DNA from: Candidatus Obscuribacteraceae bacterium
GTDB taxonomy: Bacteria > Cyanobacteriota > Vampirovibrionia > Obscuribacterales > Obscuribacteraceae
NCBI GenBank assembly: GCA_044226015.1
Contig: JBGAHS010000002.1
Coordinates: forward strand, 915,435 to 979,434
Length of the DNA: 64,000 nucleotides
Direction: 5' to 3'
Within the stretch, counting starts at the first letter, position 1; the number at the start of each line of letters is the position of its first letter. The notes beneath the pieces were generated by a model, which was not told the origin of the DNA, ran no database searches, and saw only the letters and a program-made list of their open reading frames with translations. Shown in pieces: positions 12,830-36,582 of this stretch. Made by a program: the position numbers and the translations under genes.

Positions 12830-13260
12830 AAACCTCACTCGCAAGAACTCCGAATTCATTTTTCCACGTGCAGAAGTCCATAAACCCTATTATCAGGCGA
12901 AACAGAGAAATTCTTGGGCTTTTTCGGTGTCGAATAAACCTGCATTCTGCGAGAGTCAAAGGGCACGATTTAATGAAGTTTCGGACTCGAAATATCGCCA
13001 TTTGGGCACATAAGAAATACACATTAGTATCCAGCGAGCATTGTCAAGAGGCAATTCGCGGGGTATTCCGTGTTGAAGCGAAACGAATTCCTGTCCTGTT
13101 TTCCCGGTGGTTCAATTTCTCTTGTCGAACAAGAGTAGATAAAATCCCAAGCTCAAACGAAAAAGAGTAAAGACATTTTGTCCAGAATGTCGAGTGAGGG
13201 TGTAGATACCACTGGCGGGTGCAGAGTAGGGTTCGCGGAAATTGGTCCGGGAGAGCTCTG

Positions 13261-19200: not shown

Positions 19201-21075
19201 GCAGGTCAGAAAGATCTGGAAAAAGCACAAGGAGAATTGCAGGCTGAAAGAACCGCTCTTGAAGCAGCGAAATCGGCGTTGACTACCGAGAAAGAATCAG
19301 TCAGCAAACAAGCCGGAGAGATTCAACAAAGAAAAGAAACACTCGATGCAGAAAAAACTGCGCTCGACAAAGATAAAGCTAGCTTTGAAAAACAAAAAGG
19401 AGAAATAGACACTCAAAAAGGTGAAATCGCGAAACAAAGGGAGTCTCTGCAGGCAGAAGCAGAACGCCTTGCCAGCGAAAGAGAAAGACTTGATCGCGAC
19501 CATGAGACATTGAAGAAAGAACGCAGCCAATTCATGGATGCTCGATTTGGACAAGAGTCGAAAGATGTTGATCAAAGTGGGCTCGGTAAGGGCAGATGGG
19601 GTCAGCGTATCCAAGTCACAGAAGATGGACCGGGTTGGAGAGTAGTCGGAGACAAGGGCGATGCCTTCGTCATGCTCAACGAAGACACATTCTTGAAAGA
19701 TCGCCGCGCACAAACGCCTATCGCTAAGGAGGAGTTCGCGAAGAATTACGAACCAGTAAATGTCAAATTACCAGGCGAAGAGCCCGGTACAAAGTATGTT
19801 GTTGAAAAAGATGGTTCCAAAGTCTACTCAGTTGAGAATACAACTGATGGAAAAGTAAAGCTCACCAAGATTGGCGACACATCAATTGCAAATCCGAAGG
19901 GAGAAGGTTCTAGAACCTACTCTAAACTCATGGAGCAGGAAGCAAGACAAGCAGAAGGCAAAACAGAGCCAGCGCCCACTAAACCTGCACAAGTTGAAGA
20001 GAAGCCGGTAGAGAAAACCACTAGCGTTGCCGACATTCAGAAAACACTTGAGGGAAATGCAACGTTCCGCAAACTCACAGACGAACAAAGAATGACCGAT
20101 GCTCTAAAGCAGTTAACCGACCGCGCTCTTCAAAGATTGCCGCAAACAGCAGCCGAACAATCTGAGTTCCTCACCAAGCAGCTCAAATCAGCTATGCGCA
20201 AACAGCTAGGTGCATCAACCGATGCTGATTTACCTGAAGGACTACGCAGCGTACAAATCAAAGTTGTAGAAGCAGATGGCGCAGCACCGCGTGTGGTGCA
20301 GGGCGATCCATCCAATCCAGCAGTCATTGAAATTCCATCCAAGCTTCTCGCCGAGAATCCAAAGGGAGTGCTTGTGGACGCTTACACTCAAGCATCAGGA
20401 TTGAGCGTGGTCAACCTGCTGCATGAGAAAGGAAATCGTGCCGTCACAGTACGTTCAATTTCGCCTATGCTCAACCAGATTGCCACTCAAGCAGAGAAGA
20501 TTGTCGGTGCACGTTCACTCGCACTTCAATCTCAGGAAGCAGCACCTATCAATGCTGAAGCCGCCGCTTCTGATCGCAAGATTGCATTCGATCCTAAGAA
20601 ACCGCTTGTCACCGCCTGGGATGGTGAGAACCTCGCATTCGGTGGCGAACAATTCCATGTTCGCAGCGAAATCGACAAGCTAGAAAAAGAACGCGATTCT
20701 CGCGTGAAAGATCTTGAAGAGCAAACCAGAAAAGCTCGCGAACTTGCTGATACCTCCAAGAAAGAAGCTGACATTGCTGCTGCAAAAGCTCTTGAAACAC
20801 AGCTCGCCACCGAGAAACAGAACCTTCGCGTAGTGTCAGAACTCAAACTGGCAATGGAAGGCACTCGTGGAACACAGGCACAAGAACGCGCTCGCACGCT
20901 TGTAAGAGAAGCTGCAGATCGAGCCATCGCAGAACGCTTCAAATCTGGAGAAGGAGGAGGCGCAGGACTCTCTCGCGGAGCAGCCATCGCGATGGTTATC
21001 ACAACACTTGCCTTCATGTATGTTGGCACCAACGGACCAGCACAGGCTGACGAGTACAATACCAAGTTCCGCTAA
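13261..21075 (+). CDS. Giant coiled-coil protein (~2604 aa) with conserved C-terminal module and hydrophobic tail
   Basis: Heptad-pattern E/K/Q/A/L region ~14410-19540; C-terminal ~340 aa homologous to 30416..36274; start placed at ATG 13261 after GGAGAG. Confidence 0.9.
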   Translation: MPFDDNDKATKPKKTEADEYLGLIQRQQEEATRASDNLSQDAWTPPNLEAGKSSTDKSKPGDRVTTKIELSQVYPIGELDKRAQAWRDYGGLLSPFDPNSLRSRNGSTDQQQGGQPGAGGEKQPGDKKPGDQTQGPIPNPYEYEPPYKPGQDYQPPAQPEGKPAGSDAGQWIAGLTALAAGAYALSRTVKWLTREKDNVGPIVDKASVDRKAEYKDAKVVAQTKDSKEELNWKKFDGKEFETKDGKKVGIKDVDFKLQLPEGADKNAERALKAELELRLRGKGDLAEQARKLTVESDPSLKGKEEKLVYREGASGKDFEILGTRDGKLEIKDGPTDSRLVEPKAEDKIVYKTSPENEQAAKDKGKPFELLTRTLNNDTKPGASELGQLEKELKAKEQALKEEEARIKLEKDRLAKESTALGDKEKALGEKEGSLASEEQKLKEAEQKATETADKLAQKETTLSEQTRALDERRQKLESDQKALDAEKQKADADKTKIEAEETRQKQERESIDQKNRELADQARQLTDEKATLAADREALTGEKAKVNADRIALNTEKEQVAEQREALTKAREALTSQQAELQQKQDTLVKDQEQLAQDQREFQKKLDGFAKEQEALRKLQQQSEALQRDLDARKGELDKSTQKLESDRSALDKSKTEVAQEKQALEQQRDQQNADQAKIEERLRKLADQEVANKTKEEQLSSENQRLAGEREKLADQQKSLDGQKAQIAEDREVIEEARRGLDDRAKAIGQEESRLVEEKARLAQESKTLADERKVIEAEKRSNADTKTQLGEERTALEKQRGEIEAAREAIVRDRQALDAERLAFRTEAARTSAQLADEQQRLSTERQKLDGEKTELAKQKEESAATKRALEGEQAKLDERSRNLDAEQGRLAKLDSTLAEKEGKLNEQGSALQKEALALQTEREVLGQQKRELDEQSKQQKLSQAEIEKRNTEIADKDRELKTREEKLAKDNTALTEERSKLLTEKEAILADRQKLTEERQTFTTEKANLQAEQGKLADAQIRLNEKEQALAKSEEAILQRKGELDKAVAQLTADQAKLADAQKELKDSQEKVDARSKTLDTRAAAIEKSSSELAAAQETLKTEQTALERNREALETDRKQLEADKRTQGADAAKLAEREREITERKAALDASAEAQSKEAVRLAALSEQVSREQAELRISKTTLAADQEKLSAAQKVLSTDQEKLASERAQLTQDQEKNASEKATLLAEKEALGKEKETLASSKAQLESERSKLVEEKGRVASNKADLEKERARLTTEQQALDSAKAAFETETAQKSAELAGEKQALATERLTLESDRRKIEAQKTELDAQKRAQDTKETQLSEKQSGLATEAERIGKLSTEIEGRDKESKDRKAALDATAAEIQAAREKLSADQTKLTEDQAAAKKTAGELSAEQTRLSQLDESLKAKEAKLLGDRKAYEESNTKLLEDKAALLADQKKLAGDQEKLAAERTQLQTEKQQLNEERAALNANEQKLATAQEELNAKQTKLAQDLEQLKADQTKLAEAQKGLGEAQNQIGRRERQLDQRSSDLDRTAADLKAGQDALSKSQGDLQTKTEQLAADKRQLEEDRKAADADTSKLAEREKTISTREAELLAKTTANAKEAERLQAMNEKLNAQRGQIQLDKQALEQEKTKVSEAKQALDTDRQKLDAEKAALSTEKAGLEATKQSLQDQAKEIETARAEIKKTQGELATEKDALSKRAAELQQAQTQLDKDREAFEKEKATNAADLETKTKELADREKALQGEQTKLAEDNRKLETEKTSLKDQQTKLDSDRAALTGQQQELAKQQTQLGEKDSALKAQSTALETKAKEIEGNLTKLGTERQAIEDEKAQLEKDRVAVDADQKKIAERDHQLAERQTRLTEKESQLTRQGQEVQSQRQTLLADQEKLKSDQAAVAEQSAKVATDRVALNEQAQKLAAQQSDLLTRETTLKTGQEKLLADQLTLNSDKQILQAGQKDLEKAQGELQAERTALEAAKSALTTEKESVSKQAGEIQQRKETLDAEKTALDKDKASFEKQKGEIDTQKGEIAKQRESLQAEAERLASERERLDRDHETLKKERSQFMDARFGQESKDVDQSGLGKGRWGQRIQVTEDGPGWRVVGDKGDAFVMLNEDTFLKDRRAQTPIAKEEFAKNYEPVNVKLPGEEPGTKYVVEKDGSKVYSVENTTDGKVKLTKIGDTSIANPKGEGSRTYSKLMEQEARQAEGKTEPAPTKPAQVEEKPVEKTTSVADIQKTLEGNATFRKLTDEQRMTDALKQLTDRALQRLPQTAAEQSEFLTKQLKSAMRKQLGASTDADLPEGLRSVQIKVVEADGAAPRVVQGDPSNPAVIEIPSKLLAENPKGVLVDAYTQASGLSVVNLLHEKGNRAVTVRSISPMLNQIATQAEKIVGARSLALQSQEAAPINAEAAASDRKIAFDPKKPLVTAWDGENLAFGGEQFHVRSEIDKLEKERDSRVKDLEEQTRKARELADTSKKEADIAAAKALETQLATEKQNLRVVSELKLAMEGTRGTQAQERARTLVREAADRAIAERFKSGEGGGAGLSRGAAIAMVITTLAFMYVGTNGPAQADEYNTKFR

Positions 21076-21091
21076 TTTGCTATTGCGCAAA

Positions 21092-21646
21092 TCAAGTCCA
21101 GAGCTGTTTCGTCAACTCAACCATTTCTGATTCGCGTAGAGTTATCGCATAACCTTCACTCTCGAAAAGCCTGATGAGCTTGGCATTCGATTCAGCTGTG
21201 TTGTACACAATTTTTCTCACAGCAAATGTACGAAACCAGGTTTCCAATGCGTTCATGAGAGCGGTTGCTACTCCACTTCGCCTTGAATTGGAATCTACAA
21301 AAATAGTAGAAAAGAAACCATAAAAATCCCCGTTCTCATCGCGTTCTAACCTGCCTATCGCATGTCCACAAATTTCGTGTTTTGAGTCTTCGCAGACAAG
21401 AACTTTTCCGGTGGTCTGGGCTGACAAATGAAACAAGACTCTTTGCACCAGCCATTCCATGGAATACATCGACTTGCCCTTCTCGTCACCTAGCACTTCA
21501 ATCAACGTAAGTTGCATGCGTTTGGCAACGAGTTCCACTTCCTCGGTTGAGGACTGATCTAGATCGCGAATTATTCCGCCAGCAAGATCAAAGCGATGCA
21601 ATCTTTCGCTTCGACTTTTGTTTCGCTCTTCAATCATCTGATTCAC
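21092..21646 (-). CDS. GNAT family N-acetyltransferase
   Basis: IFVDSNSRRSGVATALM acetyl-CoA motif; N...IRLFESEGY. Confidence 0.88.
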   Translation of the reverse strand: MNQMIEERNKSRSERLHRFDLAGGIIRDLDQSSTEEVELVAKRMQLTLIEVLGDEKGKSMYSMEWLVQRVLFHLSAQTTGKVLVCEDSKHEICGHAIGRLERDENGDFYGFFSTIFVDSNSRRSGVATALMNALETWFRTFAVRKIVYNTAESNAKLIRLFESEGYAITLRESEMVELTKQLWT

Positions 21647-22089
21647 TCATGGTTATGGCAGTTCGAGCTGTGCAATGGAGTTACATCATATCCAAAATGA
21701 GTGAATCCAGTTGAATTCTGGACGATATGTATCTTGGCAGTTTCATATACAAACAGCCAGATTGCGCGACTCAATAGTCCGACCATCTATTTACTCTATC
21801 GCGTTCAACCATTCAATAAATAGGTATTGAATCGAGAATACAAATAAAACACCAATGCACCAGATATCCGAAGTTACGCTCGGACAAAAGTAGAATGACC
21901 ATTAAATCTTTCGATCAGTGTTTCTTGCTGAAATCAGAAGTAGATCAATCCACCCAACAAGAAATACAGGTACGGCAACTGATCTCAGTTGAAGCCGAAG
22001 GAGTTACAGTCTTCACACTAAATCTGATTCTGGGTTCAAAAATAGAGCAAGTGACATTTCATCCCTATTTTAGTGGGGAGAAACCCCAC

Positions 22090-22176
22090 TTCTACCTCCC
22101 CAATGTTCATGTATAATCTGCAAAAAAAGTTAGGACAAACGCGCCTACCTTATTTACATGCAAATTAGACTAGGAG
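22090..22176 (+). promoter_or_regulatory. Putative sigma70-type promoter and RBS of the giant exoprotein
   Basis: Perfect TATAAT 22112-22117, weak -35 TTCTAC, AGGAG 22172-22176. Confidence 0.45.
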
Positions 22177-22183
22177 AAACCTT

Positions 22184-25100
22184 ATGAAGCTCCGGAATCG
22201 TTTACTTCATGTGCCGGCCCTAGTTATGGGACCAGCACTTGCCTGGTCAAGTTTGCCGTGTTTTGCTGAGCTAAATCTGGATTTAGCTAGTAAAAACAGG
22301 ACTGTGGTTGTTGGTGCCGACCAGCTTTCAACGCCAACCACTATTCAGGCAGGTGGCAAAGCGCATGTAATCACGCCAGGGGCGATGCTCACTCCTGCTG
22401 AGTTCGTCGCATTAACACAAGTCATCAACACTGGAAAACAGGACCTCAAATTAGACGCGGCTGGAAGGGCATCTGGTGGCAGTTTCATTTTGAACAGCGT
22501 GCCAAATGTGGCTGACCTGAGTGGGCTTACGATACCATCACGAGTAACTGCTTTACATGATTTTGCGAGCACAGCTGGAACACTAAATCTGAGTGGCAAT
22601 CTCGTAAACAGTGGTAATTTCTTTGCTTTGTCCACTAACGCAGCCACGAACTCCGCTAACATTTCAGCAGCCAATATTTTCAACAATCCACACGCATTAC
22701 TTAGCACCGTGCTACCAGCCGGTGGACTCCCCTCATTTCTCAATGCTATTTCAAATTTGAATCTGAACTTGAATGCGGCTTCTAATATCATGAATGCCGG
22801 TACTATAACGAGCGCCGGAAGCCTGACCGCCACCGCCGGTGGTTCTATCATAAACGCACTCCCTACGGGCATCATAGGACTAGCTCCTGTAATGCAGGCG
22901 ACACAGAACTTAAATCTCAACACTTCGCACTTGGTCAATTCGGGCGTAATAACGTCGGCAAATGCAAACATCAATATTGTGAATCAGTCAATTTCCAATT
23001 TGTTAGTGAACAATCTGGGTGGCACCATGAAGGCTCTCTCAGGAAGCATTAATGTGGGCGACCTATTAACCACAACGAATGCCTCGTTGAGTGGAGGTAA
23101 CTGGCTCAGCAATTCGCTAAATATAAATGTAGGGAGTGAAGCAAATCTGAATATTGGACAGGTGAGCGGAATAATAAATGCTGCGGCAAACGACCTACAT
23201 ATCACCGCCAGCACTGACGCACTTCGCTTAGGAAACATATGCCTGAAGGGCGACCCAACCTTCTACAATCTAGCTGGAGATGTCCTGCTGAATGATGGTT
23301 TTGATTTGACCACAAACGGAGAAGATCTCGCAATTGTTGCCAAAGGCGATATCAAAGTTGATGATTTGGCCCTTAACCCGGTGCAAATCGACACTGACGG
23401 GGGAGACGTCTTGATGGTAGCCGGGGCAAATTTCACAGTGCCCTCTGGTGATGACATTACAATTTTCGGTACAAGTCCTGAAGGTGGAGAAATAGACCTT
23501 TCTACAGGACCAGGTTGTGACCTCTTCAACACAACACCCACGGCATCAAACTCCAATGGCGGCAATATTACGTTAGTGGCATTTGGTGGTGAATCTGGCA
23601 CATCGTCTGTTTTAGCAGGCAAAATCACTTTGCCTTTGCTTGGACTGAATGTAACTAGCGGCGGCACCGGGTCTGGTGCAAACGGCAACTTCACCGCAAT
23701 TGCTGGTGAACTATCAGCTGACTCCACTTCGATTATCATTGGTGGAGTAGATACAAGCGGTGGCACGGGTTCAGGTGGCCAAATAGGGCTGTACACCTCT
23801 ATTCCTGTATTGACAGTCGGAGGAAATCCAAGTTCTTCAATAGACATAGTGAACCACTCGCTGCTTGCAGGTCACGCAATCACAACTGATACTACAAAGA
23901 ATCTCCAGAACAACCACATAACTGCGTTCAGCCTCACGTCTACTGGTCGCCAAGGAACATCAGTTATTGCAGGTGGAAACATATTTTTTACAAACGCAAG
24001 CTATGTTCCCAACGGAAATGATGGACCACTGACTAATGTAGACGGACCACATATAGACCTCATCGGTGGAGCTAGCGGAATAGTTCATCAGTTGGGTGCA
24101 ACTCTAGCGCCTAATGCCCAGTTGAATATTCAGGCGGGCTCACAAGGGTTTATAAGTGATGGAGATATTTCTGCTGGTGATATCAAAGTAGAAAGCCAGG
24201 GAATCATTACGGTCAAAAATGTGACCAGCACCGCTGGGGCTTACACAATAAATGCAAAAGGCGAGCCGATTGAAGTTAAGTCTGCTTCGCTTCGATCCAT
24301 TGGTGCCAGTAGTGGAGACATAACAGTTCTGGGAACCATTTGTTGCAATCAAGTATTTTTGCAATCAACCTTCGGAAATGTTGGAAGTATCTCAAACAGG
24401 GTAAACATAGCCGCAAACGTGGCAGTGGATGTGGGGGTCAATAGCGGCAGCGCGTTTCTGACTGGACTTGGCGATCTGACTCTTTTCCCAACTAGTTTCG
24501 TAGGAAAGTTGAGTAGCAATACACTCGATGTTGAAACAAAAAACAATGGTGATATCGTCCTGGGTGGACTCGACTCATTTGGCGTATTTCTAACTGGCGC
24601 TGTTCCGAATATCAATTTCTTGGGTGGACAGAATTCGCTAAAACTCACTGCCGATGGAACAGGGGAAATCAGACAATCTGACTTTGTCCAAATCCACGCG
24701 GGGCAAGCAACTCTTACTTCGGGAACCGGTGACATTGGTTTTCACAACTTAGATGTTAATGGAAAAGAGACCGGACTCTGGATCTTCGCTTCTAGCATCG
24801 AAGCAAAAACGGGAGGCAACGTTTTCCTGACGCAAGCAACTGTTCCAGACGGCAAGCCTCGTGCATCAGTTCTCATCAATAACGTACCAATAGCCGATGG
24901 AAAATCATTCTTATACAGAACAGATTATTCAGCTACTCAGGTAGAACTAAGCAAGGTAAATGCCGGCAATAACTCAAGTATCACGGTAAATTCAGCTGGA
25001 AAAATTGTTGTTCTAGACAAAGTGAGTGTCGGCACCGGTTCGTCCATTGACATAGGTACGCAAAGTGACCTTGTTCTGTCAGCACCAACAGGTGTTGTAG

Positions 25101-28100
25101 AGGGCGACGTTGGCTCGAACATTACCTTAAATGCTGGAAAAAGCTTGCTTCAAGGAACGAGCGTGCTTGTTTCCGCAGGTGGTTCAATTTCGGTTACAAC
25201 AGGACAAGATATCCAGCCGACGTCAGCCACAGTTAAGCTTGGAGCGGGTTCCGTTTTTCTTGACGCCCCAGGTGATATCGGCAGTCCAAGTTCACCAATC
25301 AATACATTTACTGAAAAACTCACTGTCAATTCTTCGACAAATGCCTATATAAATTCTGAGGCATCTTTTCCAATGGAATTAGGCATTGTCAATTCAAACA
25401 ATTTCAATTTCACTACCGAAGGTGATCTCACTCTGACAAATTCAATGTCAGGTGCTGCCGCTTCCATAAGCAGTAATAGTGGTTCCATAACCGTCAACTC
25501 AAACATGAGTTTCGGTGCTCAAATTTCATTGATAGCTAACAAAGGCTCCATTACAAACAATGCAAATGGTCCAGTTATACAGATTGGTAAAACAGGCAGT
25601 CATGTATTCATCTCCACACCTCAGTTAAAAAACAATGGCATCATAGTTGGTGAAACCATCAATGTTAGCAGCCCCACAGGCATTGACTTGCATATTTCGG
25701 GTACAGGGAAATTCACGTCCAATGACACACGCCTTGCCGCGCCAGGTGATCTTGATGATACCAACACCATTACATTTGACAATCTTTCGAACCAGCACTT
25801 TTTCGGGCCAACAACCTTCATTGCCAATGGCGATTTACAGCCAAACATTTTGATTGACAATGCGGTCGTGGTAGTAGATTCTCCTCTCTCACTATTGGCA
25901 CACGGTTATACAAAGAATTTTGGAAGCTTAAGTGCCGATCCTATCAGGCTAATTACACCAAACGGGGCTGGGATAATTTCCGTAGGGCAAGGCGATGTTG
26001 TTCTTCAAAGCAATCTCATTTTTGAGGGAAAAAATCTCACAATCATATCTCCCGGAAATATTTTCGCTACCGCTGCAGTAACAAAAATAGAACTAAAGAG
26101 CAAAGACGGAACCGCAGGAAACCTTACCTTGATTGCTGGTTTTGATTTTACGAAGAGCCCAGCGGGAAGCCCCTTTGATCAAAGACTCACATTGAATTCG
26201 ATCAACACAGTGACTGGACCCTCTAGCCACGGGGGCTCCATTGTATTGCCCAAGGTAGCGATCGATACGTCAACCCAAGGTACCGGGTTTATCTCCGCAA
26301 TAGGTGGAAATGTAGTTGCAGTTGCACACAAAGGAAGTGAAAACATAGGCGCCATTTTACTCAAGTCTGTTACAGCAACAGGTGGCGCGCAAGGCAGGGG
26401 CGGAAACGTAACGTTGATTGGCCAAGGCGGAGTTAAAGCCACTGGACTCATTGATACCAGCGGTAGTACTGGTGGAAACGTCACAGTTGCTGGCGCAGAA
26501 CCCATCATTGTAGGTGGACCAATTGTCTTTCAAAATGGTTACTTACGCTCAGCTGGAGTGTTTGTCGCATTGCCAGTTGACGAAAAAAATGGTGCCAGCG
26601 TTATTATTGGAAGCACTAAAACAAGTGGGTCATTCAAGTTCGGCGGTGATGTTAACATCAGATCCGATTCGCAAGTCAGCGTCGGAAACATAACGGCAAC
26701 AGGAGCGGGCAAAGCCTTAGACGGAATCTCTGGTGGGTCCGTAACAATTTCTTCGCTGGCAAACCAGGTTAACGCAGCAAACATCGACGTTAGTGGCATG
26801 CCTTATGCTACATTTCCCACAGCTCCTGTTGTCTCTACTCATGCAGGGAGCATTGTAATAACGGCCTATTCTGGAATAAGCGTCGGAAACTTGATCGCTC
26901 ATGGAGGAGCCCGCCCAGGTAAGGGAAGCGGCGGAAATGGCGGCCAAGTATTTGCCTCAACCGCAAGCGATAACATCAAAGGTTATTTTACAGGATCGAT
27001 ATTAGTTGATGGATATATTGACACCAGAGGTGGTGACGGCAATCTGAAAGTAGATGACGGTTCATCAGGCGGAGCTGGTGGTTCTGTCTTCTTAAATGGT
27101 GGCACGGTTCAGGTGCTCAAGGCTCTTTCAAATGTCAGCATTAACGTGGCCGGCGGAACAGCCAAGAATTCAGCTAATGGAGGCAGCGGCGGCACAGTTC
27201 AAATCAACACATACGGCGTTCAGCCATTTCCCCGGAACTTTGATTTAATAAGCAGTATAGCTTCTGAAGCAGTTTTGCCGGGTGGACTATTCACAGTTGG
27301 CGCTCCAAAGGTCGGCACAGCTCTGGTAAATGCAGGCAAGCCTCCAATAAATGGTACCGTCGGATGGATAAACTCTGGGTCAATCACGCAGGCTTTGAAA
27401 GTTTCTAGCTTGACTGATACAAACCCAGCTGGTGACGAGTACAACCAGCTGGGAGTTAGTATCAACATCACAGGCGGCAGCGAAACCTATAAAGTGATTG
27501 TGAATGAATCTACGACCCCCGCTCTTCAATTCCGTTCCGGGACGGCAACGGTTTCGGGCTTGCGCCAATTCGTCACCCCTGCAGCTGCGGTAGCCCTCTA
27601 TCAAGTATCAAGAGGTCTAGATCAGCAGATAGGAGTCCTCGGAAGCAATGGAGTTGGTGTAGGGCGAAATCCACAATTCTCCACCACGACTCCTGGATTC
27701 TCACCGGCAATCATTCAAGTAGATGAAAGGGATATTCGAGGTCGATTTACGAACTTCAATCTCAGCGTTCTCAATACAACAAATTCAGCGTTAGCTGGAG
27801 ACGCTGAACTAAATGTCAGCGGTCTTTTACCGGTGATTGATCTCTCGCTGACAAAACAGAAATCGATAAACGGACGCGTCATGTTTGAGACACCAGATGC
27901 GGTGTCTATGATCTTCGGCGCCAAGTCGCTCGGTTCCCCATTGGGTAGCATTACGACAGCTCCCACTGGAACACTGGTGATTGGAACCACTGAGGCAAAG
28001 ATACTGAATCTAGGAAAGATCGGGGCAGGTAAAATTGCTTTTCTTGGTACTGGAAGCTCATTGATGATCGACAACGGACTCTACAGCCCTTCGCCGGCTA

Positions 28101-30079
28101 CAACCTATTCACCGTCAATTTCCGGAGTATTGCATGCCACAGATCCACGCGTCATTATTCCTACCACAGGAACTCTGCCAGCTTACAATTTCAAGACAAG
28201 CCGGGCATCTTTCCTTACGCCTATTTCGTTTGAAACCTTCCAGCTGCCTACATCGTTCGGGGCAGTTGGCACACGAACTTTACCCACAGCCGATGTTCGC
28301 AATGTAAGAATCAGCGCGCTCAACACTTCGCTAGGAATTGGAAACACCTACGTACCAGGCAACGTGACAATTCGAGGAGAAGTTCTTGGAGGGGACATCT
28401 CCATTAATACAATCACGGACATTGGACCAACTAAAGCTGCGACTAACTTGATTTTCGACACAGGGGCATATGTTTACTCCATCGGCGGCACGAGTATTGT
28501 CTCTGCCGGCACACTGCAGTTGAATGACTCAACTGTAAATGGGGGCAACAAAACAAAGCCACTGACCATCACTGCAGCTGGCGATATCACCACAAACAAC
28601 TCGTCCATTTTCAGTAACTACAAGGGCAGCATTACGAGTCAGCACGGAAGCTTCACCGACCTGGGCACTGGCAGTCATGGTTCTTACGACGACAGCCTCT
28701 CTATAACCGCAGAAAGTAACATCACTTTCAATTCAGCTAGTTCTTTAGGTACGGTCAAAGGGCTTACCATTCAGTCAAAGAATGCAGGAATTACACTGTC
28801 CGGCAATTTATTCAATGCAAGTGGAGTTCTTAGGGTTGTTGCAGCTAAAGGAATCTCTGTCGGGGCAACACTTTCCTCAGGAGAATTAACCCCAACAGCA
28901 CCAAGCACAGGAAACCTTAGCAAGAATGATATTGCCAAAATGTTTGATGGTGTCACCGCAAAAGCTGGAAGCATTAGCATAATTTCCGGAAGCAAGACAA
29001 TGCCTCATAGTATCGCCGTGTTAGCCAACGCCAAACTTACATCCAACGGAGGCAATGTAAGCTTAGCCAGCTTCAATGACATCAGCCTTAGTACTCCAGC
29101 AACAATTTCTGCTAATGGCGGAAATGTGTTCTTGCTCGCAATGGGAAGCGTTGAAGACAGTAACAACGTCTTTAGTTCAAATGTTGTAAAAGTCAGTGCT
29201 CGTGCAATAGGCACAGCAGCCAGCTCTACGGGTGGCGTAATTGAGATTGGCTCGGGGCTGACTGCACCGACGATCGCAAGTCCCCCAGCCCAAACATCTA
29301 CCGTTAGCCAATCCGCACTGACACGCGGACCAGGATCTGTGACAATAAATGGAACTGGTGCTCTCAAGGTAAACGTAAGTTCCCAGGGTAAGGTAGAGCT
29401 AAACAATTACAGCAATAGCGCTGTCATTAACATGAGCGGTGGAGCAATCGTAATAGATGCGAAAAGTACCACACCAGGAAAGGGCGTAATCTTCGACGGA
29501 ATACAACTTGACGTAAGCGCGTTTAAGCCGATTGCCTTCGTTCAAGAACCGGAGATCAGAACTGCATTAATCGTGTCCGAGCGCGACGCGGTCATTGATA
29601 CTGCATACGGTGCAATTCAAGTAAAGCGCGGCGCCGTCCTCACATTGGAAACCTCCAATGGAATCATAAGGGTTCAGTCTTGCAGCGGACCTCACGATGT
29701 CTCTATCAAAGTTGAGAATGGAACCATTCCTGTTGCGCCTGGACAGGAAGTTTTGTTGACTGGTGCAGAACCAAGGGAGTTCGAGCGACATCCATACGAC
29801 GGCATCGGACGACGAGGTACGGTCAGCTACAAAATGGGCAAGACTCACCTGACAATTTCAGATTTCTCGATTATCTCACTCTTGCAAAATGCTGATTATC
29901 TTTCAGAACTAAAGGCAAGCAAAAACAACAGCGAAAGACGAATTCTAAGCAAGGTACTCAAGACAGCCGCTGCAGTTCAAACACTCACCGCCGGCAAACG
30001 TGGCGCTTACAATGCCAAACCGAAGGTACCAGGGTCCATGAAACACCAGCGCAGGAAAGATACGCTGGCTCAACTTTGA
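22184..30079 (+). CDS. Giant secreted filamentous-haemagglutinin-like beta-helix protein (2631 aa) with FecR-like C-terminal domain
   Basis: Signal peptide; G/S/T/N/I/V-rich beta-strand repeats (GGNVTL, GSITI); N- and C-terminal domains shared with 41862..51506. Confidence 0.85.
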   Translation: MKLRNRLLHVPALVMGPALAWSSLPCFAELNLDLASKNRTVVVGADQLSTPTTIQAGGKAHVITPGAMLTPAEFVALTQVINTGKQDLKLDAAGRASGGSFILNSVPNVADLSGLTIPSRVTALHDFASTAGTLNLSGNLVNSGNFFALSTNAATNSANISAANIFNNPHALLSTVLPAGGLPSFLNAISNLNLNLNAASNIMNAGTITSAGSLTATAGGSIINALPTGIIGLAPVMQATQNLNLNTSHLVNSGVITSANANINIVNQSISNLLVNNLGGTMKALSGSINVGDLLTTTNASLSGGNWLSNSLNINVGSEANLNIGQVSGIINAAANDLHITASTDALRLGNICLKGDPTFYNLAGDVLLNDGFDLTTNGEDLAIVAKGDIKVDDLALNPVQIDTDGGDVLMVAGANFTVPSGDDITIFGTSPEGGEIDLSTGPGCDLFNTTPTASNSNGGNITLVAFGGESGTSSVLAGKITLPLLGLNVTSGGTGSGANGNFTAIAGELSADSTSIIIGGVDTSGGTGSGGQIGLYTSIPVLTVGGNPSSSIDIVNHSLLAGHAITTDTTKNLQNNHITAFSLTSTGRQGTSVIAGGNIFFTNASYVPNGNDGPLTNVDGPHIDLIGGASGIVHQLGATLAPNAQLNIQAGSQGFISDGDISAGDIKVESQGIITVKNVTSTAGAYTINAKGEPIEVKSASLRSIGASSGDITVLGTICCNQVFLQSTFGNVGSISNRVNIAANVAVDVGVNSGSAFLTGLGDLTLFPTSFVGKLSSNTLDVETKNNGDIVLGGLDSFGVFLTGAVPNINFLGGQNSLKLTADGTGEIRQSDFVQIHAGQATLTSGTGDIGFHNLDVNGKETGLWIFASSIEAKTGGNVFLTQATVPDGKPRASVLINNVPIADGKSFLYRTDYSATQVELSKVNAGNNSSITVNSAGKIVVLDKVSVGTGSSIDIGTQSDLVLSAPTGVVEGDVGSNITLNAGKSLLQGTSVLVSAGGSISVTTGQDIQPTSATVKLGAGSVFLDAPGDIGSPSSPINTFTEKLTVNSSTNAYINSEASFPMELGIVNSNNFNFTTEGDLTLTNSMSGAAASISSNSGSITVNSNMSFGAQISLIANKGSITNNANGPVIQIGKTGSHVFISTPQLKNNGIIVGETINVSSPTGIDLHISGTGKFTSNDTRLAAPGDLDDTNTITFDNLSNQHFFGPTTFIANGDLQPNILIDNAVVVVDSPLSLLAHGYTKNFGSLSADPIRLITPNGAGIISVGQGDVVLQSNLIFEGKNLTIISPGNIFATAAVTKIELKSKDGTAGNLTLIAGFDFTKSPAGSPFDQRLTLNSINTVTGPSSHGGSIVLPKVAIDTSTQGTGFISAIGGNVVAVAHKGSENIGAILLKSVTATGGAQGRGGNVTLIGQGGVKATGLIDTSGSTGGNVTVAGAEPIIVGGPIVFQNGYLRSAGVFVALPVDEKNGASVIIGSTKTSGSFKFGGDVNIRSDSQVSVGNITATGAGKALDGISGGSVTISSLANQVNAANIDVSGMPYATFPTAPVVSTHAGSIVITAYSGISVGNLIAHGGARPGKGSGGNGGQVFASTASDNIKGYFTGSILVDGYIDTRGGDGNLKVDDGSSGGAGGSVFLNGGTVQVLKALSNVSINVAGGTAKNSANGGSGGTVQINTYGVQPFPRNFDLISSIASEAVLPGGLFTVGAPKVGTALVNAGKPPINGTVGWINSGSITQALKVSSLTDTNPAGDEYNQLGVSINITGGSETYKVIVNESTTPALQFRSGTATVSGLRQFVTPAAAVALYQVSRGLDQQIGVLGSNGVGVGRNPQFSTTTPGFSPAIIQVDERDIRGRFTNFNLSVLNTTNSALAGDAELNVSGLLPVIDLSLTKQKSINGRVMFETPDAVSMIFGAKSLGSPLGSITTAPTGTLVIGTTEAKILNLGKIGAGKIAFLGTGSSLMIDNGLYSPSPATTYSPSISGVLHATDPRVIIPTTGTLPAYNFKTSRASFLTPISFETFQLPTSFGAVGTRTLPTADVRNVRISALNTSLGIGNTYVPGNVTIRGEVLGGDISINTITDIGPTKAATNLIFDTGAYVYSIGGTSIVSAGTLQLNDSTVNGGNKTKPLTITAAGDITTNNSSIFSNYKGSITSQHGSFTDLGTGSHGSYDDSLSITAESNITFNSASSLGTVKGLTIQSKNAGITLSGNLFNASGVLRVVAAKGISVGATLSSGELTPTAPSTGNLSKNDIAKMFDGVTAKAGSISIISGSKTMPHSIAVLANAKLTSNGGNVSLASFNDISLSTPATISANGGNVFLLAMGSVEDSNNVFSSNVVKVSARAIGTAASSTGGVIEIGSGLTAPTIASPPAQTSTVSQSALTRGPGSVTINGTGALKVNVSSQGKVELNNYSNSAVINMSGGAIVIDAKSTTPGKGVIFDGIQLDVSAFKPIAFVQEPEIRTALIVSERDAVIDTAYGAIQVKRGAVLTLETSNGIIRVQSCSGPHDVSIKVENGTIPVAPGQEVLLTGAEPREFERHPYDGIGRRGTVSYKMGKTHLTISDFSIISLLQNADYLSELKASKNNSERRILSKVLKTAAAVQTLTAGKRGAYNAKPKVPGSMKHQRRKDTLAQL

Positions 30080-30415
30080 TTAGCGAAGTTTGGGCAGTCA
30101 CACTCAGCTTCCCAAGTTGACTAGACCCTTTCACAGCGCAAAAAAGGAAGCGAATACGCAGCGATAGGTTCGGGTTTGCCCGTCTAAGATCACGATGAGC
30201 TCACATTGTTTTTTTTTCAGATGCCCGGCATCCGGACACCTGACTCCTGCTACTTCAAAATCTGGATTATCTTTGGGCTGAGGCAGGATCAGTGTTCCCC
30301 ATGCGGGAATAAGAGAATTAATACAGCGTTTGCGGACTTGCGCCTTGTCGACCTTAACAAAATCTCAGACAATCGCAAGTGTCAGTGCCTGCAAGCTTTC
30401 TGCCGGGTGAGCTCA

Positions 30416-33400
30416 ATGAGTTCGGAAAAGTCAGCCATTAGCAATAGCGAGCAATCGGACCAAAAGTCCGTCGCCGCAGACCGTGCTGTTGACAAGCTAA
30501 GCCTGGAAGCGAACCCGAACCCAGACGCAAAAGCCAGAACAGAGCAGACCAATAGTGTCGCACTCCAATCACAGAATGAATTAAGCACAAAAGCAGGCTC
30601 TGTCCCAGAGCTCAAACGACTTCTCAGTGATGCTGGAAGTTTAACAAGCCCAGAAGCCGGTAAAATGGCTGCTGCAGACAAAACCAAAACAGCTCTAGTA
30701 CAGGAATCAACAAATTCCGCTGACCGCAGCTCGCAAACTGATAATGGCGCAAGTGACGCAGGCTCGGCGCTGGCGAGGCTAATTCGTGCCGCCAGCGATA
30801 ATGGTCTCAAGTGCGCAGACAAAGCTTGCAATTTTCTCGGTGAAAAAACAGCTCTCTATGGCTTCGACGAGCAGACAGGTGCAGGAATTGTTTCCAGAGT
30901 GCTAAATAAGTTCACTCAGCAGATTCAGCGGCATGAAGCAGACACCAGCAGTGGTACCATGCGAGACATCGGTGGTCGACCCTACACAGAGATAAAACTA
31001 AATGGCAATGCTCTCTATCAAGCTGCTGATGGAAGCATCTACAAGAAAGAGACTAGCGATAACAAAACATTCCTTGAAGAAATACCTGGGCTCAAAGCAG
31101 TTAGCGCGGACAAGCTGTCCATAGATGGCGTTACAAGAAATGGACTGAGAGAAAACACAACACGACAGAACTCGAATCTCGATTCATCTGCAAGTAGCAG
31201 CGAGTTGAAGACGCTGTTTACTTTAATGAAGCAACCTCACGGATTGCTCGAAAGATTGGGCAAGACAGAGACTCCAATCGTCAAACCATTTGTTGAACAG
31301 TTTGCATTCCTCGACAAACTCAAAGATTTCGCCTGGCAGTCACCATTGGAAAGCTTGAGTGGAAAACTCTCATTGCCAGGTGATACCACTTTAAGCTCTG
31401 CGCAGCTTTCTCTTAAACATCAGTTTTCCGCAGCAAGAACCGAAAGAACACTTCAAGAAGTTCAAGAGAAACAAGAAAACAGCCGTTCCACAGAACGTCT
31501 TTCCCCTAAAGCGCTCGCACAATCAAACGACTACGCCACACAGCATTTGCTAAGCGAACCCCTGCAAGATGGTTTTAAGACTGCCGGACAGTTCAGAACC
31601 TTCACCGCAGATGGTGCCTTCAACGGTAGCGATCGAGCCGCAACGGTCGTGGATCGCTCGAAGGACCAGAAGCTTAACGAGATCATCGCAGACGCCAAAG
31701 CAAAATTCGCTGAGTTGCCAGACCGCGAAAAAGCAAGAGCTCTTGCAGACTACGTGAACAAGATCATGGGACCCGCAGACGGCAATGAAAAGGCTCTGGA
31801 TGAGCGCTATCGCGCAATGATGACAGAGAATGCCGGCAAGTCGATGATGTTAAGCGAATTTCTGGGGAATGGCTCTTGCACACAACGAGCTTTGTTGCTC
31901 AAAGTTCTCGCTGATGAGATGGGGCTCAAAAGCGACGTGGTGAGAGGCAATGGTGGAGCGCATGTATGGAACACATTCAGCTTCAACGACGGAAAGAAAG
32001 AAATATTCGACACGAGAGCCCAAATCTATGGCGTCGAGACATCGCCAATGCACAAACCCATGCAGGGTTCAGCTGAGACCGTAAACAGCTCAACGTACAC
32101 AGCAGGGCAAATAGTCAACACTGAAGGCAAGAGCTGGACAGTAAAGGGCTATAACAATGAAGATGGTCGCCTTGTGCTTGAGAGAAGAGATGAGAAAGCT
32201 CTGAATGCTCAAGAAATGGCAAAATTAGCAGGTGCACAAGCGAAGGAAATAAACACGCTTGGCTCTAAGATTACACTCACAAATGAACAAGGCAAGCAGG
32301 AAGATTGGACATTCGATGGCAAAACTGCGGATGGGAAATACAAACTCAGTCGAGCAGAAGAAAAGCACGTAAGTCCTCACGACCTTTCCGAATCAGTTCT
32401 CGAAATGGCAGGTGGAAAGCGCAATCCTCACGTAGATTATCTGCAAAGCAATTGGAAACAGCTGGTCACTGACAATCCGAAGCTCTCCACACAACAGAAA
32501 GAAAGCCTTGAGACATCTCGCCGTTTGCTAGAAGAAAACGCAAACAATGCGGGAGACTTCCGCAAAATTGTAGACGCAATCTCCAAGCTTGGGCAAAGCG
32601 GTGCACCCGACGCTGGTGAACGCATAAATGCGCTTACAAAACTTGCTAATACGGCTGTCAATTATGCTGATGCTGTACATCTACCAATCGAACGCATCAT
32701 AGCACCTGATACAAACTTGACTGCACTAAAACAAGTTGCTGAATCTTTTGCACAAAGCGCACCATTTGAGATGTCTGCCCCAACAATGATGGATGGCACA
32801 CCGGCTAGAGATGGTGATGCATACGAACATGCGGCAAGTCAGGCGCTGCAAAAGGCTCTACAAGACCAGTACACACTTGACCGGTTAGTAAAAGAAGGCA
32901 AATTTCCACCAGGAGAATGGGTCTTCGTTCCTTCATCAAAAGGCTCTGTCGCCGACGACATGAAGATAGATGGCATGCTTGTAGATTTGAAATCAGATAG
33001 AGCAATCTTCATCGACTTCGCACGGCAAGATGACAAAGGTGGCTACTCCAAACTTATCGACAAACTAGACCCGAGCAAATCTGGAAATACTTTCAGCGAT
33101 GGCTCACTCAAACATCCATATGCATTAACTCTCGACCACAGCAGCATTGGGTTCAACCCGACGACTGGTGAGAATAGCGGAAAGGTCAGTGCAACGAAAG
33201 TTCTTGAAAGAGTAGGCGCATTCATGCGTGGCACGCAGCTTAGCGAGCTCGGCATCAGACAGGTGCAACAAGGTCCGGCAAAAGAGTTCAGCATCTCACG
33301 CCTGAAATCAGCTTTGGGCGGAAGATTTTTCAATTTTGCACCAGTGAATGGCGAAACGGAAGCAGCCGTAATTTCACGAGAAACTGGCACAAAAACTCTG

Positions 33401-36274
33401 GCAAGACAGACTGAACTTGAAGACATTGCGAAGAGATCGAAATCGAATCCCGAGCTTCGCTTTTTCGGTAATGCTGCCAGTTCAGCTGTTCAAATTGCTG
33501 ATGAACCTGCGCATGGAGTCGATTTTTTTGCAAATGGCTTGCGCGCTGCTGTAGAAATGGACAAACAGGGACTAAGAGACACTGTGTTTCCTACAGACAA
33601 ACCGATGACGACAAGCATATCAGTTGGCAACGACACAGAGGGTCCTACTCGCTATAAGAACCAGCCATTCATCAAAATTGTTGCTGATGATAGAACAAAA
33701 TCAGAATACAGAATCTACCAAAACGGCGATGTTCTGGTTAAAGCAAATGGTGGCAGAGACTTTCATCCAATTGGAAGCCTGGACAGCCTTAGCCAGAAAT
33801 TGGGTCAGGCTCTAAGACAAGCCGACATGGACAACGCAGACTTTGCTCCGAAGTTGAAAGAGTTGCGGCAGCTGAAAGGACGTGCTTTCCAAACCGCCAT
33901 GAACGACATCGAAGCTTTAGGCAAAAAGGAAATTTCCGCTCAAGAGTTCTATAAGCGTCAGCCTGGATTGAAACTGCTTGCAGAGGGTCTCGAACACGGT
34001 TCTGAGGTTCAGCGAAGCGCCCAGGAATCAGGGCAAAAACTAGAGCTTAGATCGCAAATTGATAAGGACGAAAAACTCGCATCACTTTCTGAAGCAGCTC
34101 GAAATGAAATAGCTGCTAAATATTTACAGCTCAAAGCACAAGGAAGAACTGATTTAAGTTTCAGAGAAATTGCTAGAGTAATCTCACTTGAAAAAGCAGG
34201 AATGAAGATTCCAGATGCAGTCGACGCAACACGTTTCCAGGCTAAGCTCGGGCCGGCTGCAGAAGCATGGACAGCAGAAGAGATAAAAACAAACTTTGAG
34301 AGCGCGAAAAAAGCGCAAGAGACCGACTACCGATCTGTAAATGAATTGACCGAAGTATTCAAATTACAGCAGCTCCAAAAGCAATTCAGCGCCACTCCTT
34401 CTGAGGCGCGCCTGTATTCGAATCTGATAAAAGAGGTTCCTACAGCTTCCAACTCGGAACTCATCGAAATGAAGCGAATGTATGATGCGATGAAAGCTAA
34501 CGAAGTGAGAGGCACAAACGCTGAACTCACCGCAAACACATTTAAGAAGTTCGGCGCCATGAGCAATGAAGCCATAGCAGAATGGGGCAAACTCACCAGC
34601 AGCCTGAAGAAGTTGCCCAGCGATCAGCTGGCAACAATGGCAGTCAACAATCTAAAAGCGCAAGCCCTTTTCGGTGTTGACGCAAGCAAAGCTGCCGAGA
34701 TTAATAAAGCAGCAAGCGATCTCGCAAAAACCGGCACAGCACCTGAGCTTGCGCACGAAGTTGCTGCCTTGCAAGTGCTGAAGAATATTAAAGGCGCTGA
34801 TGCGTTAGACCAAGCAAGATTGATATCGGAAATGCGCTCAAGATCAAGCGGAAATACGAGCTACGATAATCTGCTGGCTAGCAGCCGAGTTCTTCAGAGT
34901 GTTCGCGCTCTGGCGCCAGAGTCAATTCGTGCCGAGATGGAAACATTGATAGCCGAATCAATCAAGAAAAACGGCGCTGACCTAGCGGCACTCAAGACGA
35001 ACATCAGCGAAGAACTGTTCAATCGAGGAACATCGCAAGGCGCAAATGAAGCAGATTGGGCAAAACTTTTTGATCATGTCGATAGTACTAAATCAGTCGA
35101 TGAATTCGCCAAATTGCTCAACCTCCCTGGCGAGCAAGCAGAACGCGCAGCCGCCCTGGATGCATACAGACGTTCATACATTCCAGATAGCGGCGACAAC
35201 GCGCCTGCGACTCCTTCCGCTGTGAGCGCAAGCGATTTAGAAGCAAGACTAAAAGGCAACCAAACCTATGAAAGATTAACTGATGCAAGTCGCATGACAG
35301 ATGGACTCAAGCAGCTGACAGACAGAGCCTTACAGAGAATGCCAGAAGCTAACAATGAGAAAGCCGAATTCTTGAACAAACAGCTGAAGGCAGCCTTACG
35401 CAAGCAGCTCGGTGTGAGCACTGACGCAGAGCTTCCCGAGTCCATTCGGAATATGAAAATTAAGATCACAGACTCAAACGACAAAGCACCAAAGCTGGTG
35501 CAAGCCGCTGCGGGTGACCCTGCCACCATCGAGATACCTGCTTCTCTACTGAAAGACAACCCCAAAGGAGCACTCGTAGATGCCTATACCCATGCATCTG
35601 GACTTGGAATAATCGACGCGCTCCATCAGAAAGGTAATGAGGCTGTCGGCATACAAGCATTGAAACCAGTTCTTCAAAAAATTGCATCACAAGCAGAATT
35701 AATTGTCGGAGCACGCTCACTGGCTTTGACGGCAGATAAGCCGGCAGTCCCTGTGAATACAGAAGCGGCTGCTTCAGAACGCCCAATTCGCATTCCACAG
35801 AATCAAACCCTGGTGAGCAGCTGGGACGGAGAGAATCTCGTTTTTGGCGGCGAAAAATTCCAACTTGGCAAAGAGATTCAAGGTCTGGAAAAGGAACGCG
35901 AAAGCAGGGTGAAAGCCCTCGAACAAGAACTGAAAAAAGCGCAAGAACTTGCAGAGCAATCAAAGGCAGAATCAGACATCGCGAAAGCCAAAGAATTAGA
36001 AACCAGACTTGCAGCTGAACAGCAAGATTACAGAGTAGTATCAGAGCTAAGAGCAGCAATGGAAGGTCAAAGAGGTGCAAACGCCCAAGAGCGGGCACGC
36101 AGCTATGTAAAAGCTGCAACAGAAAAGGCAATACAAGATCGTATGAGCAATCGTGGTGGCGGAGCAGTATTCAGCAGGGCCAATGCTGCAGCCCTCGTTA
36201 TCACCACTCTTGCATTCATGTACGTAAACAGCGCCCCAGCACAAGCCGAGACCTACACAAGTTCATTCCGCTAA
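30416..36274 (+). CDS. Large multidomain protein (~1952 aa): transglutaminase/EDR1-like domain, PD-(D/E)xK-like motif, helical region, shared C-terminal module
   Basis: GSCTQRALLLKVLAD...HVWN...IFD; KIDGMLVD...IFIDF; C-terminus homologous to 13261..21075; start placed at ATG 30416. Confidence 0.85.
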   Translation: MSSEKSAISNSEQSDQKSVAADRAVDKLSLEANPNPDAKARTEQTNSVALQSQNELSTKAGSVPELKRLLSDAGSLTSPEAGKMAAADKTKTALVQESTNSADRSSQTDNGASDAGSALARLIRAASDNGLKCADKACNFLGEKTALYGFDEQTGAGIVSRVLNKFTQQIQRHEADTSSGTMRDIGGRPYTEIKLNGNALYQAADGSIYKKETSDNKTFLEEIPGLKAVSADKLSIDGVTRNGLRENTTRQNSNLDSSASSSELKTLFTLMKQPHGLLERLGKTETPIVKPFVEQFAFLDKLKDFAWQSPLESLSGKLSLPGDTTLSSAQLSLKHQFSAARTERTLQEVQEKQENSRSTERLSPKALAQSNDYATQHLLSEPLQDGFKTAGQFRTFTADGAFNGSDRAATVVDRSKDQKLNEIIADAKAKFAELPDREKARALADYVNKIMGPADGNEKALDERYRAMMTENAGKSMMLSEFLGNGSCTQRALLLKVLADEMGLKSDVVRGNGGAHVWNTFSFNDGKKEIFDTRAQIYGVETSPMHKPMQGSAETVNSSTYTAGQIVNTEGKSWTVKGYNNEDGRLVLERRDEKALNAQEMAKLAGAQAKEINTLGSKITLTNEQGKQEDWTFDGKTADGKYKLSRAEEKHVSPHDLSESVLEMAGGKRNPHVDYLQSNWKQLVTDNPKLSTQQKESLETSRRLLEENANNAGDFRKIVDAISKLGQSGAPDAGERINALTKLANTAVNYADAVHLPIERIIAPDTNLTALKQVAESFAQSAPFEMSAPTMMDGTPARDGDAYEHAASQALQKALQDQYTLDRLVKEGKFPPGEWVFVPSSKGSVADDMKIDGMLVDLKSDRAIFIDFARQDDKGGYSKLIDKLDPSKSGNTFSDGSLKHPYALTLDHSSIGFNPTTGENSGKVSATKVLERVGAFMRGTQLSELGIRQVQQGPAKEFSISRLKSALGGRFFNFAPVNGETEAAVISRETGTKTLARQTELEDIAKRSKSNPELRFFGNAASSAVQIADEPAHGVDFFANGLRAAVEMDKQGLRDTVFPTDKPMTTSISVGNDTEGPTRYKNQPFIKIVADDRTKSEYRIYQNGDVLVKANGGRDFHPIGSLDSLSQKLGQALRQADMDNADFAPKLKELRQLKGRAFQTAMNDIEALGKKEISAQEFYKRQPGLKLLAEGLEHGSEVQRSAQESGQKLELRSQIDKDEKLASLSEAARNEIAAKYLQLKAQGRTDLSFREIARVISLEKAGMKIPDAVDATRFQAKLGPAAEAWTAEEIKTNFESAKKAQETDYRSVNELTEVFKLQQLQKQFSATPSEARLYSNLIKEVPTASNSELIEMKRMYDAMKANEVRGTNAELTANTFKKFGAMSNEAIAEWGKLTSSLKKLPSDQLATMAVNNLKAQALFGVDASKAAEINKAASDLAKTGTAPELAHEVAALQVLKNIKGADALDQARLISEMRSRSSGNTSYDNLLASSRVLQSVRALAPESIRAEMETLIAESIKKNGADLAALKTNISEELFNRGTSQGANEADWAKLFDHVDSTKSVDEFAKLLNLPGEQAERAAALDAYRRSYIPDSGDNAPATPSAVSASDLEARLKGNQTYERLTDASRMTDGLKQLTDRALQRMPEANNEKAEFLNKQLKAALRKQLGVSTDAELPESIRNMKIKITDSNDKAPKLVQAAAGDPATIEIPASLLKDNPKGALVDAYTHASGLGIIDALHQKGNEAVGIQALKPVLQKIASQAELIVGARSLALTADKPAVPVNTEAAASERPIRIPQNQTLVSSWDGENLVFGGEKFQLGKEIQGLEKERESRVKALEQELKKAQELAEQSKAESDIAKAKELETRLAAEQQDYRVVSELRAAMEGQRGANAQERARSYVKAATEKAIQDRMSNRGGGAVFSRANAAALVITTLAFMYVNSAPAQAETYTSSFR

Positions 36275-36582
36275 AGAGCCCAAGCTGATGTCGACGAATA
36301 ACTCAGAGCAATTGTCGCAGTTTGACGTGTGGTTATTCCCAAGCACATTGAAATTGAAGGTATTGCCCTAATGATGAATTTGGTATAACCTGCAATAAAG
36401 TTCACCACATGTGCAGCTGCGTTTGTTTTTGCGTAAGTCAGAAGCACAAATTGCACTGCAAAAAAAAATAATCGCTTGTTGAGATTCCCAATCTAACAGC
36501 GCACTATTTGTCGCTCGTAAGAGCGCAGCTTCTCTTCTCTGAGAGGCAGCCTTGTCTTGGCTTCATCAGGGGTAATACACAA

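Follow-up and report, generated by a model that had tools for sequence, protein, structure and literature searches.

The stretch of DNA analysed here (the window; 64,000 nucleotides, positions 915,435 to 979,434 of contig JBGAHS010000002.1, assembly GCA_044226015.1) comes from Candidatus Obscuribacteraceae bacterium, whose genome is called G000 below, G001, G002 and so on being other genomes of its family. It carries two giant genes, A and C, whose products differ completely over most of their length and end in a common C-terminal module of about 340 residues, here called the M-type module. The two genes and their modules are laid out as follows.

13261..21075, + strand: gene A, encoding an acidic leader, an internal hydrophobic helix, a coiled-coil rod of ~1700 aa, a small beta-rich domain and an M-type module
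20047..20544, + strand: N-terminal half of the module in A, a predicted zincin-like alpha/beta domain without HExxH, with YTQASG at the motif position (within 20368-20403)
20602..20970, + strand: module core in A, with a beta-hairpin, a coiled-coil hairpin, a helix and a Gly-rich linker; the part common to all subtypes
20971..21072, + strand: tail of A, with Arg, a hydrophobic helix (20971-21027), PAQA (21037-21048) and a terminal octapeptide (21049-21072)
30416..36274, + strand: gene C, encoding an acidic leader, a papain/transglutaminase-like peptidase, a nuclease-like domain, a helical region and an M-type module
35249..36274, + strand: M-type module in C, with tail helix (36173-36229), PAQA (36236-36247) and octapeptide (36248-36271)

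The open reading frame (ORF) of A spans 13219-21075 (2618 aa, open from a GTG at 13219) and that of C spans 30206-36274 (2022 aa, open from a TTG at 30206); judged from the N-termini of homologues, the likely starts are the ATG codons at 13261 (MPFDD) and 30416 (MSSEK). The modules make up the last 342 codons and stop of A (20047-21075, + strand) and the last 341 codons and stop of C (35249-36274, + strand). As the initial annotation had proposed, the two stretches align nearly without gaps at about half identity: BLASTP gives 201 identical residues of 343 (59%) with 3 gaps (E 4e-144), and the motifs it had picked out lie within this alignment. It was also right that the upstream parts are unrelated (residues 1-2250 of A against 1-1665 of C, best BLASTP E 1.7) and that neither protein has a hydrophobic signal segment at its N-terminus, signal and helix calls here and below being based on hydropathy only. 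Because the DNA identity between the two modules is only 59.7%, they are not the result of a recent duplication. A third close copy lies in G000 at C6:53790-54788 (43% identity by tblastn), and three diverged copies lie elsewhere in the genome. Between A and C lie a GNAT gene and a gene for a 2631-aa protein, in neither of which a module was found.

Dozens of giant proteins in this one bacterial family end in related forms of the same uncatalogued module. A 15-row profile of the M subtype found 15 copies in seven genomes, namely G000 and six of the seven other genomes of the genus, and one weak match (E 5.9e-4) among the other 96 family genomes. The latter belongs to a 4962-aa giant with the same layout at its own C-terminus, which defines subtype Y, and the three diverged copies of G000, one of which lies inside a protein of 5856 aa, define subtype X. 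Of 104 genomes, 10 have subtype Y and nine have X-like sequences. Next to a full Y-module gene, just 5' of it, stands a stand-alone 137-aa remnant of the Y core that resembles an orphan cassette (L102:8409-8819, G089 C6). Profile-profile support between the subtypes is modest (M-X 79%, M-X2 56%, X-Y 56%, M-Y 1%), and M against Y was not significant by hhalign. With at most nine candidates scored per genome, a profile built on the shared core had matches in 26 of 103 genomes of the family and in two of 297 others of the class; none of the 400 genomes of a phylum sample matched at E<=1e-7. Twelve core matches outside the seeds were checked. All ten in-family ones close with a Gly/Arg linker and then a hydrophobic helix, eight of them 8-35 residues before the stop, one internally and one at a contig end; the two out-of-family ones are plain coiled coils and were rejected.

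A search of the M profile against 1.84 billion representative proteins returned 17 matches, a pattern scan of metagenomes returned one locus, and the source names of the relatives are Candidatus Obscuribacterales or Obscuribacteraceae. The module had no usable match in Pfam, PHROGs, NCBIfam or ESM Atlas, and the initial annotation had recognised no family for it either. We found no published description of it or of Obscuribacterales effectors in a literature search of sources outside subscription journals. The module family is real and undescribed. Nor is it a one-off duplication of two genes, which, like a match to a characterised domain, would have refuted the initial annotation: it is a reusable C-terminal unit with 15 M copies in seven genomes on at least five unrelated classes of cargo.

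The five classes that carry an M module are coiled-coil rods (889-3057 aa), C-type proteins, some of which have the peptidase and some of which do not, a ~950-aa class bearing the Asp-motif domain described below, and the P0009 and P0022 types. In this respect the idea of a constant module with interchangeable cargo stands, but it is too simple, as the same cargo bears different subtypes in other genomes. Residues 433-1538 of C are 45% identical to a Y-module protein of G002 (L100), residues 480-1652 match an X-module protein of G096 (L110) at 37% identity, and the cargo of an X-module protein of G000 (C9:320228) is 50% identical to another Y-module protein. Likewise, A is related over its N-terminal part to a Y-module protein that G001 encodes at A's own locus, beside DUF6891, the biotin genes and HtrA. 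Exchange of cargo and module therefore goes both ways, and the occurrence of the same cargo on different subtypes is the strongest evidence that M, X and Y are equivalent units. A quick tree of 29 M modules, which left out the fragments P0020, P0021, P0023 and P0024, implies seven cargo changes against a minimum of three, with no strongly supported branch forcing them.

The N-terminal half of the module is predicted to adopt a zinc-peptidase-type fold that has lost its catalytic motif and may act as a docking scaffold, and the second half is predicted to form a coiled hairpin spacer. HExxH is absent from every aligned M module, the position being mostly occupied by Y[TAS][QH]A[SA]G, and the Y subtype retains FH[QE]LxQ. 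Sixteen of 50 VIA rows for the N-terminal half are zincin-type, with SPRTN first; VIA with the whole module gave generic helical hairpins only. hhalign of the N-terminal half against local active zincins was not significant, and Foldseek of the module against PDB and viral models gave nothing at E<=0.001. The order of elements in the predicted model is compatible with the zincin core as outlined in PMC5512222, a three-stranded sheet preceded by one helix and followed by two.

Of 27 non-redundant M tails (five near-duplicates having been dropped), 21 have Ala-x-Ala after the hydrophobic helix. The corresponding figures for the same genome are 420 of 3940 helices in internal positions, 38 of 393 at C-termini and 316 of 896 single helices at N-termini; these and the following tail counts are descriptive, since related sequences are not independent. 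The motif is present in four of four internal module copies but, among terminal tails of the other subtypes, in only five of 26. Just before the helix, all 30 non-M tails carry a positive net charge and all 27 M tails a charge of zero or above. The best non-self match of a tail profile is an N-terminal hydrophobic segment, and the genome has two genes for signal peptidase I (SPase I). With basic residues, hydrophobic helix and Ala-x-Ala, most M tails have the layout of a SPase I substrate, and the site is a putative cleavage site. In the octapeptide beyond it, Tyr337 is invariant among 15 aligned M modules within the pattern D/E-x-Y-x-x-x-F, and Pro-x-Tyr recurs in other subtypes. A 376-aa protein of G000 (L065, C8:499025-500155), encoded directly 5' of a gene of the P family introduced below, has an Asp-motif domain and, of the module, the tail alone (Gly/Arg, hydrophobic helix, PSQA); the tail may be able to move independently of the other module parts.

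The module is linked to a second element, P, a helical domain that is conserved and has hydrophobic segments rich in Gly. In four genomes (G000, G095, G096 and G098) P follows the module in frame, and elsewhere it opens the next gene. It is present in 60 of 103 family genomes, comprising all 26 with the module and 34 of the 77 others. Among the matches listed, with 85 weaker P matches outside them and many contigs being short, a P match stands no more than 13 kb from 31 of 45 non-M copies (3' of the copy in 29) and near none of the 15 M copies; on this count, M is an orphan branch in its gene neighbourhood. P itself (alignment A7) forms a large, uncatalogued family; one genome can have as many as 16 matches, and the domain usually opens proteins of 1500-3900 aa. 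One fused protein of G000 (L052, C9:323696-341266, 5856 aa) carries FHA, peptidase-like and Asp-motif domains and a domain that we take from a motif to be kinase-like, then an internal X module, P, and HEAT-like and TPR-like regions; a second X-module gene follows it directly.

The remaining features of A and the cargo of C are as follows.

13771..13815, + strand: internal hydrophobic helix of A (residues 185-199), followed by basic residues in orthologues and predicted N-out/C-in
14422..19548, + strand: coiled-coil rod of A, with heptad periodicity (peaks 6.95, 7.07 and 3.5)
31502..32020, + strand: EDR1/CTR1/ARMC3 peptidase-like domain of C (PF14381, E 4.8e-12)
32756..33208, + strand: domain of C with three invariant Asp, which also occurs in the C6 protein and in six further proteins of G000

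Matches of the rod to SMC/HmpF-type coiled coils remained below the cut-off. Its length varies greatly among the A orthologues (whole proteins of 889-3057 aa) and it is flanked by two predicted membrane helices, an arrangement reminiscent of long membrane tethers. In the peptidase-like domain of C, Cys558, His586 and Asp602 form a candidate catalytic triad. The Asp-motif domain, presumably restriction-nuclease-like from its motif, had no significant match in Pfam or PDB searches that would confirm this and gave a weak Atlas lead (HinP1I, 0.88). The cargo of P0009, which we take from its motif to be RelA/SpoT-like, again with no confirmation from Pfam or PDB, recurs, at 45% and 39% identity, as the C-terminal tip of two module-less polymorphic-type proteins of G000 (L118, C6:278345-280246, and L119, C11:283638-285929), both of which end in this uncatalogued domain. 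The cargo repertoire includes PRTase-CE, Tc-R-P phosphatase, zincin, methyltransferase, papain-like peptidase and FHA domains, and a giant of G087 has phosphatase, PRTase-CE, methyltransferase and zincin domains in one chain. A small beta repeat common to the upstream parts of A and C was rejected, its profile having recovered only its own seeds and near copies, and we make no claim for a common N-terminal leader motif, which is weakly enriched (18 of 3722 proteins at residues 40-80; a second pattern gave five matches).

The A orthologues stay at one locus. Neighbours of the module genes are biotin genes, DUF6891, HtrA and gyrase-region genes. A-type and C-type genes adjoin in other genomes (convergent at L016:5441-15707 in G002, in tandem at L028:2920-16665); in the window, the GNAT gene and a giant gene stand between them. 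Directly 3' of C, 36508-39534 encodes a 1008-aa multi-pass membrane protein with a weak VIT-domain-type match and several paralogues in the genome. Two giants with N-terminal signal-like segments, 22184-30079 (+) and 41862-51506 (-), are unrelated to the module; a region at the N-terminus (36%) and, separately, a cap at the C-terminus (25%) are common to both, and dozens of similar proteins occur in the genome. G000 also encodes module-less giants of 2500-7750 aa (C11:406378, C12:364671, C5:113839, C6:382299, C11:1122786, C3:280331 and C3:294415) whose acidic leaders lack a signal and which combine FHA, RHS-repeat, phosphatase, PRTase-CE, annexin or LysM domains in various ways.

How might such a module work? 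We give a probability of roughly 0.5 to a signal-peptide-type tail anchor, that is, a reusable C-terminal unit that holds interchangeable enzyme- or rod-like cargo at the membrane. The tail helix would insert with the cargo on the cytoplasmic side, as predicted by the positive-inside rule from the basic residues before it, and the membrane would most simply be the producer's inner membrane. The dead zincin would then serve as docking scaffold and the coiled hairpin as spacer. SPase I would clip Ala-x-Ala in the M and fused forms, releasing the octapeptide in the window's subtype, and in the module-P fusions this helix would double as an internal signal through which the first domain of P is exported and freed. 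Cargo and P together have the appearance of a membrane-staged conflict arsenal. Of the trafficking or anchoring role suggested by the initial annotation, anchoring is thus consistent with the anatomy, but its comparison with C-terminal export signals of type I, IV and IX secretion systems was not supported: the tail consists of basic residues, a hydrophobic helix predicted N-in and usually Ala-x-Ala, and none of the secretion markers named below was found in the genome. What weighs against a tail anchor is that many members, including A, have a second helix upstream (near residue 150-280 in A-type proteins) followed by basic residues, which is predicted to put a signal-less N-terminal domain outside, a placement that we cannot explain by ordinary Sec insertion; C and C6-type proteins have a single membrane segment.

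Those N-out domains would make sense in a target membrane, if the module were instead the tip by which the protein docks and enters when it is delivered into a neighbouring cell, its dead zincin binding a passage formed by the multi-helix P and its tail entering the target membrane. The cargo repertoire, with PRTase-CE, Tc-R-P phosphatase, zincins, methyltransferase and papain-like peptidase, resembles that of conflict effectors, the P0009 cargo is the tip of two polymorphic-type proteins, and P, with its Gly-rich hydrophobic helices, is close to most non-M copies listed. We nevertheless consider delivery unlikely. VirB4, SctV/FlhA, VipA, WXG100 and sheath markers (PF03135, PF00771, PF05591, PF06013 and PF04984; one marker per system, for type IV, III, VI and VII secretion and contractile sheaths) were not found in the 92% complete genome, which has two secretins. 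Moreover, M copies have no neighbouring P among the matches listed, and Ala-x-Ala between module and P in the fused forms suggests that the two lie on opposite sides of one membrane. No small immunity-like ORF follows A, C or the C6 copy within 700 bases, the three M genes scored, the GNAT gene after A being on the opposite strand. This last result would also fit an ordinary structural or oligomerisation domain confined to this lineage, equipped with a tail anchor and placed on membrane signalling proteins of the cell's own Ser/Thr network and having no trafficking or conflict role, as would the FHA and phosphatase domains among the cargo and the single locus of the A orthologues. Exchange of cargo and module at high divergence, tandem gene arrays, reuse of a toxin-tip-like domain and the conserved link to P make this explanation distinctly improbable. 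The invariant Tyr337, the conserved octapeptide pattern and the Pro-x-Tyr of other subtypes raise the further idea that the M subtype releases a short peptide signal, with the tail as signal peptide and the Tyr octapeptide as its sole passenger, coupled to a cytoplasmic effector freed by intramembrane cleavage. With six of 27 M tails lacking Ala-x-Ala, some having Pro at the site, with most Y tails lacking the site and with no conserved receptor gene nearby, we regard it as very unlikely.

In modularity the module proteins are like polymorphic and polyvalent effectors and in topology they are like a tail-anchored protein, but the defining features of polarity, immunity and mobile elements fail where tested. 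Polymorphic toxins, according to Zhang et al. (2012, PMC3482391), join a trafficking part to exchangeable effector domains, including RelA/SpoT-like and metallopeptidase domains. Like them, the module proteins are modular and exchange effectors, as shown by the five cargo classes on M and the same cargo on M, X and Y. Unlike classical ones, with their constant N-terminus and variable C-terminal toxin, the common part here is C-terminal, predicted to span the membrane and found in swapped subtypes, with no immunity-like ORF after three M genes and none of the listed secretion systems found in the genome. Polyvalent proteins of phages and conjugative elements are large, combine many unrelated enzyme domains and often have terminal zincin-like metallopeptidases, according to Iyer et al. 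(2017, PMC5512222), in whose main text 'transmembrane' and 'signal peptide' do not occur. The G087 giant likewise has several unrelated effector domains in one chain, but the module genes are chromosomal among housekeeping neighbours, without a PHROG match, and their zincin lacks HExxH. Bacterial tail-anchored proteins, according to Craney et al. (2011, PMC3087755), have no N-terminal signal, a hydrophilic N-terminus and a C-terminal helix, with a topology that is predicted from flanking charge. The module proteins resemble them in all these respects; they differ in that the tail belongs to a folded 340-aa module in proteins of up to ~5000 aa, has a peptidase-like site, is sometimes internal and, in A-type proteins, is joined by a second helix.

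In flavivirus C-prM and hepatitis C virus core-E1, the C-terminal helix of one unit is the cleavable signal for the next, and the same arrangement is proposed for the four fused module-P proteins. These are bacterial, however, their cleavage is putative, and most module copies stand at a protein's end, with only a short peptide beyond the site. Anthrax lethal factor has a non-catalytic zincin-like N-terminal domain that docks on protective antigen, which offers an analogy for a docking role of the module's N-terminal half; it is not among the structure matches listed and has no sequence link, and the module is C-terminal with a membrane helix. LPXTG, PEP-CTERM and GlyGly-CTERM proteins have an N-terminal signal peptide and a C-terminal motif, helix and basic cluster. 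Here the order is reversed (basic residues, helix, motif), there is no N-terminal signal, and no NCBIfam sorting model matched.

Obscuribacteraceae are uncultured relatives of cyanobacteria with large genomes and many giant effector-like proteins, and no known injection-system marker was found in G000. The module marks a class of these giants, ties them to the partner family P, and predicts a cleavable signal at the C-terminal end or in the middle of a protein. If borne out, this prediction would add a sorting signal and a bacterial polyprotein design to those known, and would provide a handle for mining new peptidase, nuclease-like and nucleotidyltransferase-like domains. It is possible, although doubtful at present, that the family has an undescribed membrane-staged effector system in which the dead-zincin/coiled-hairpin/signal-peptide module works with P, and in which some genomes make a polyprotein of 2,500-6,400 residues that is cut, like viral polyproteins, at an internal signal-peptidase site. 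The effector-system reading, if true, would mean a new route by which bacteria without known injection systems place or deliver enzyme effectors.
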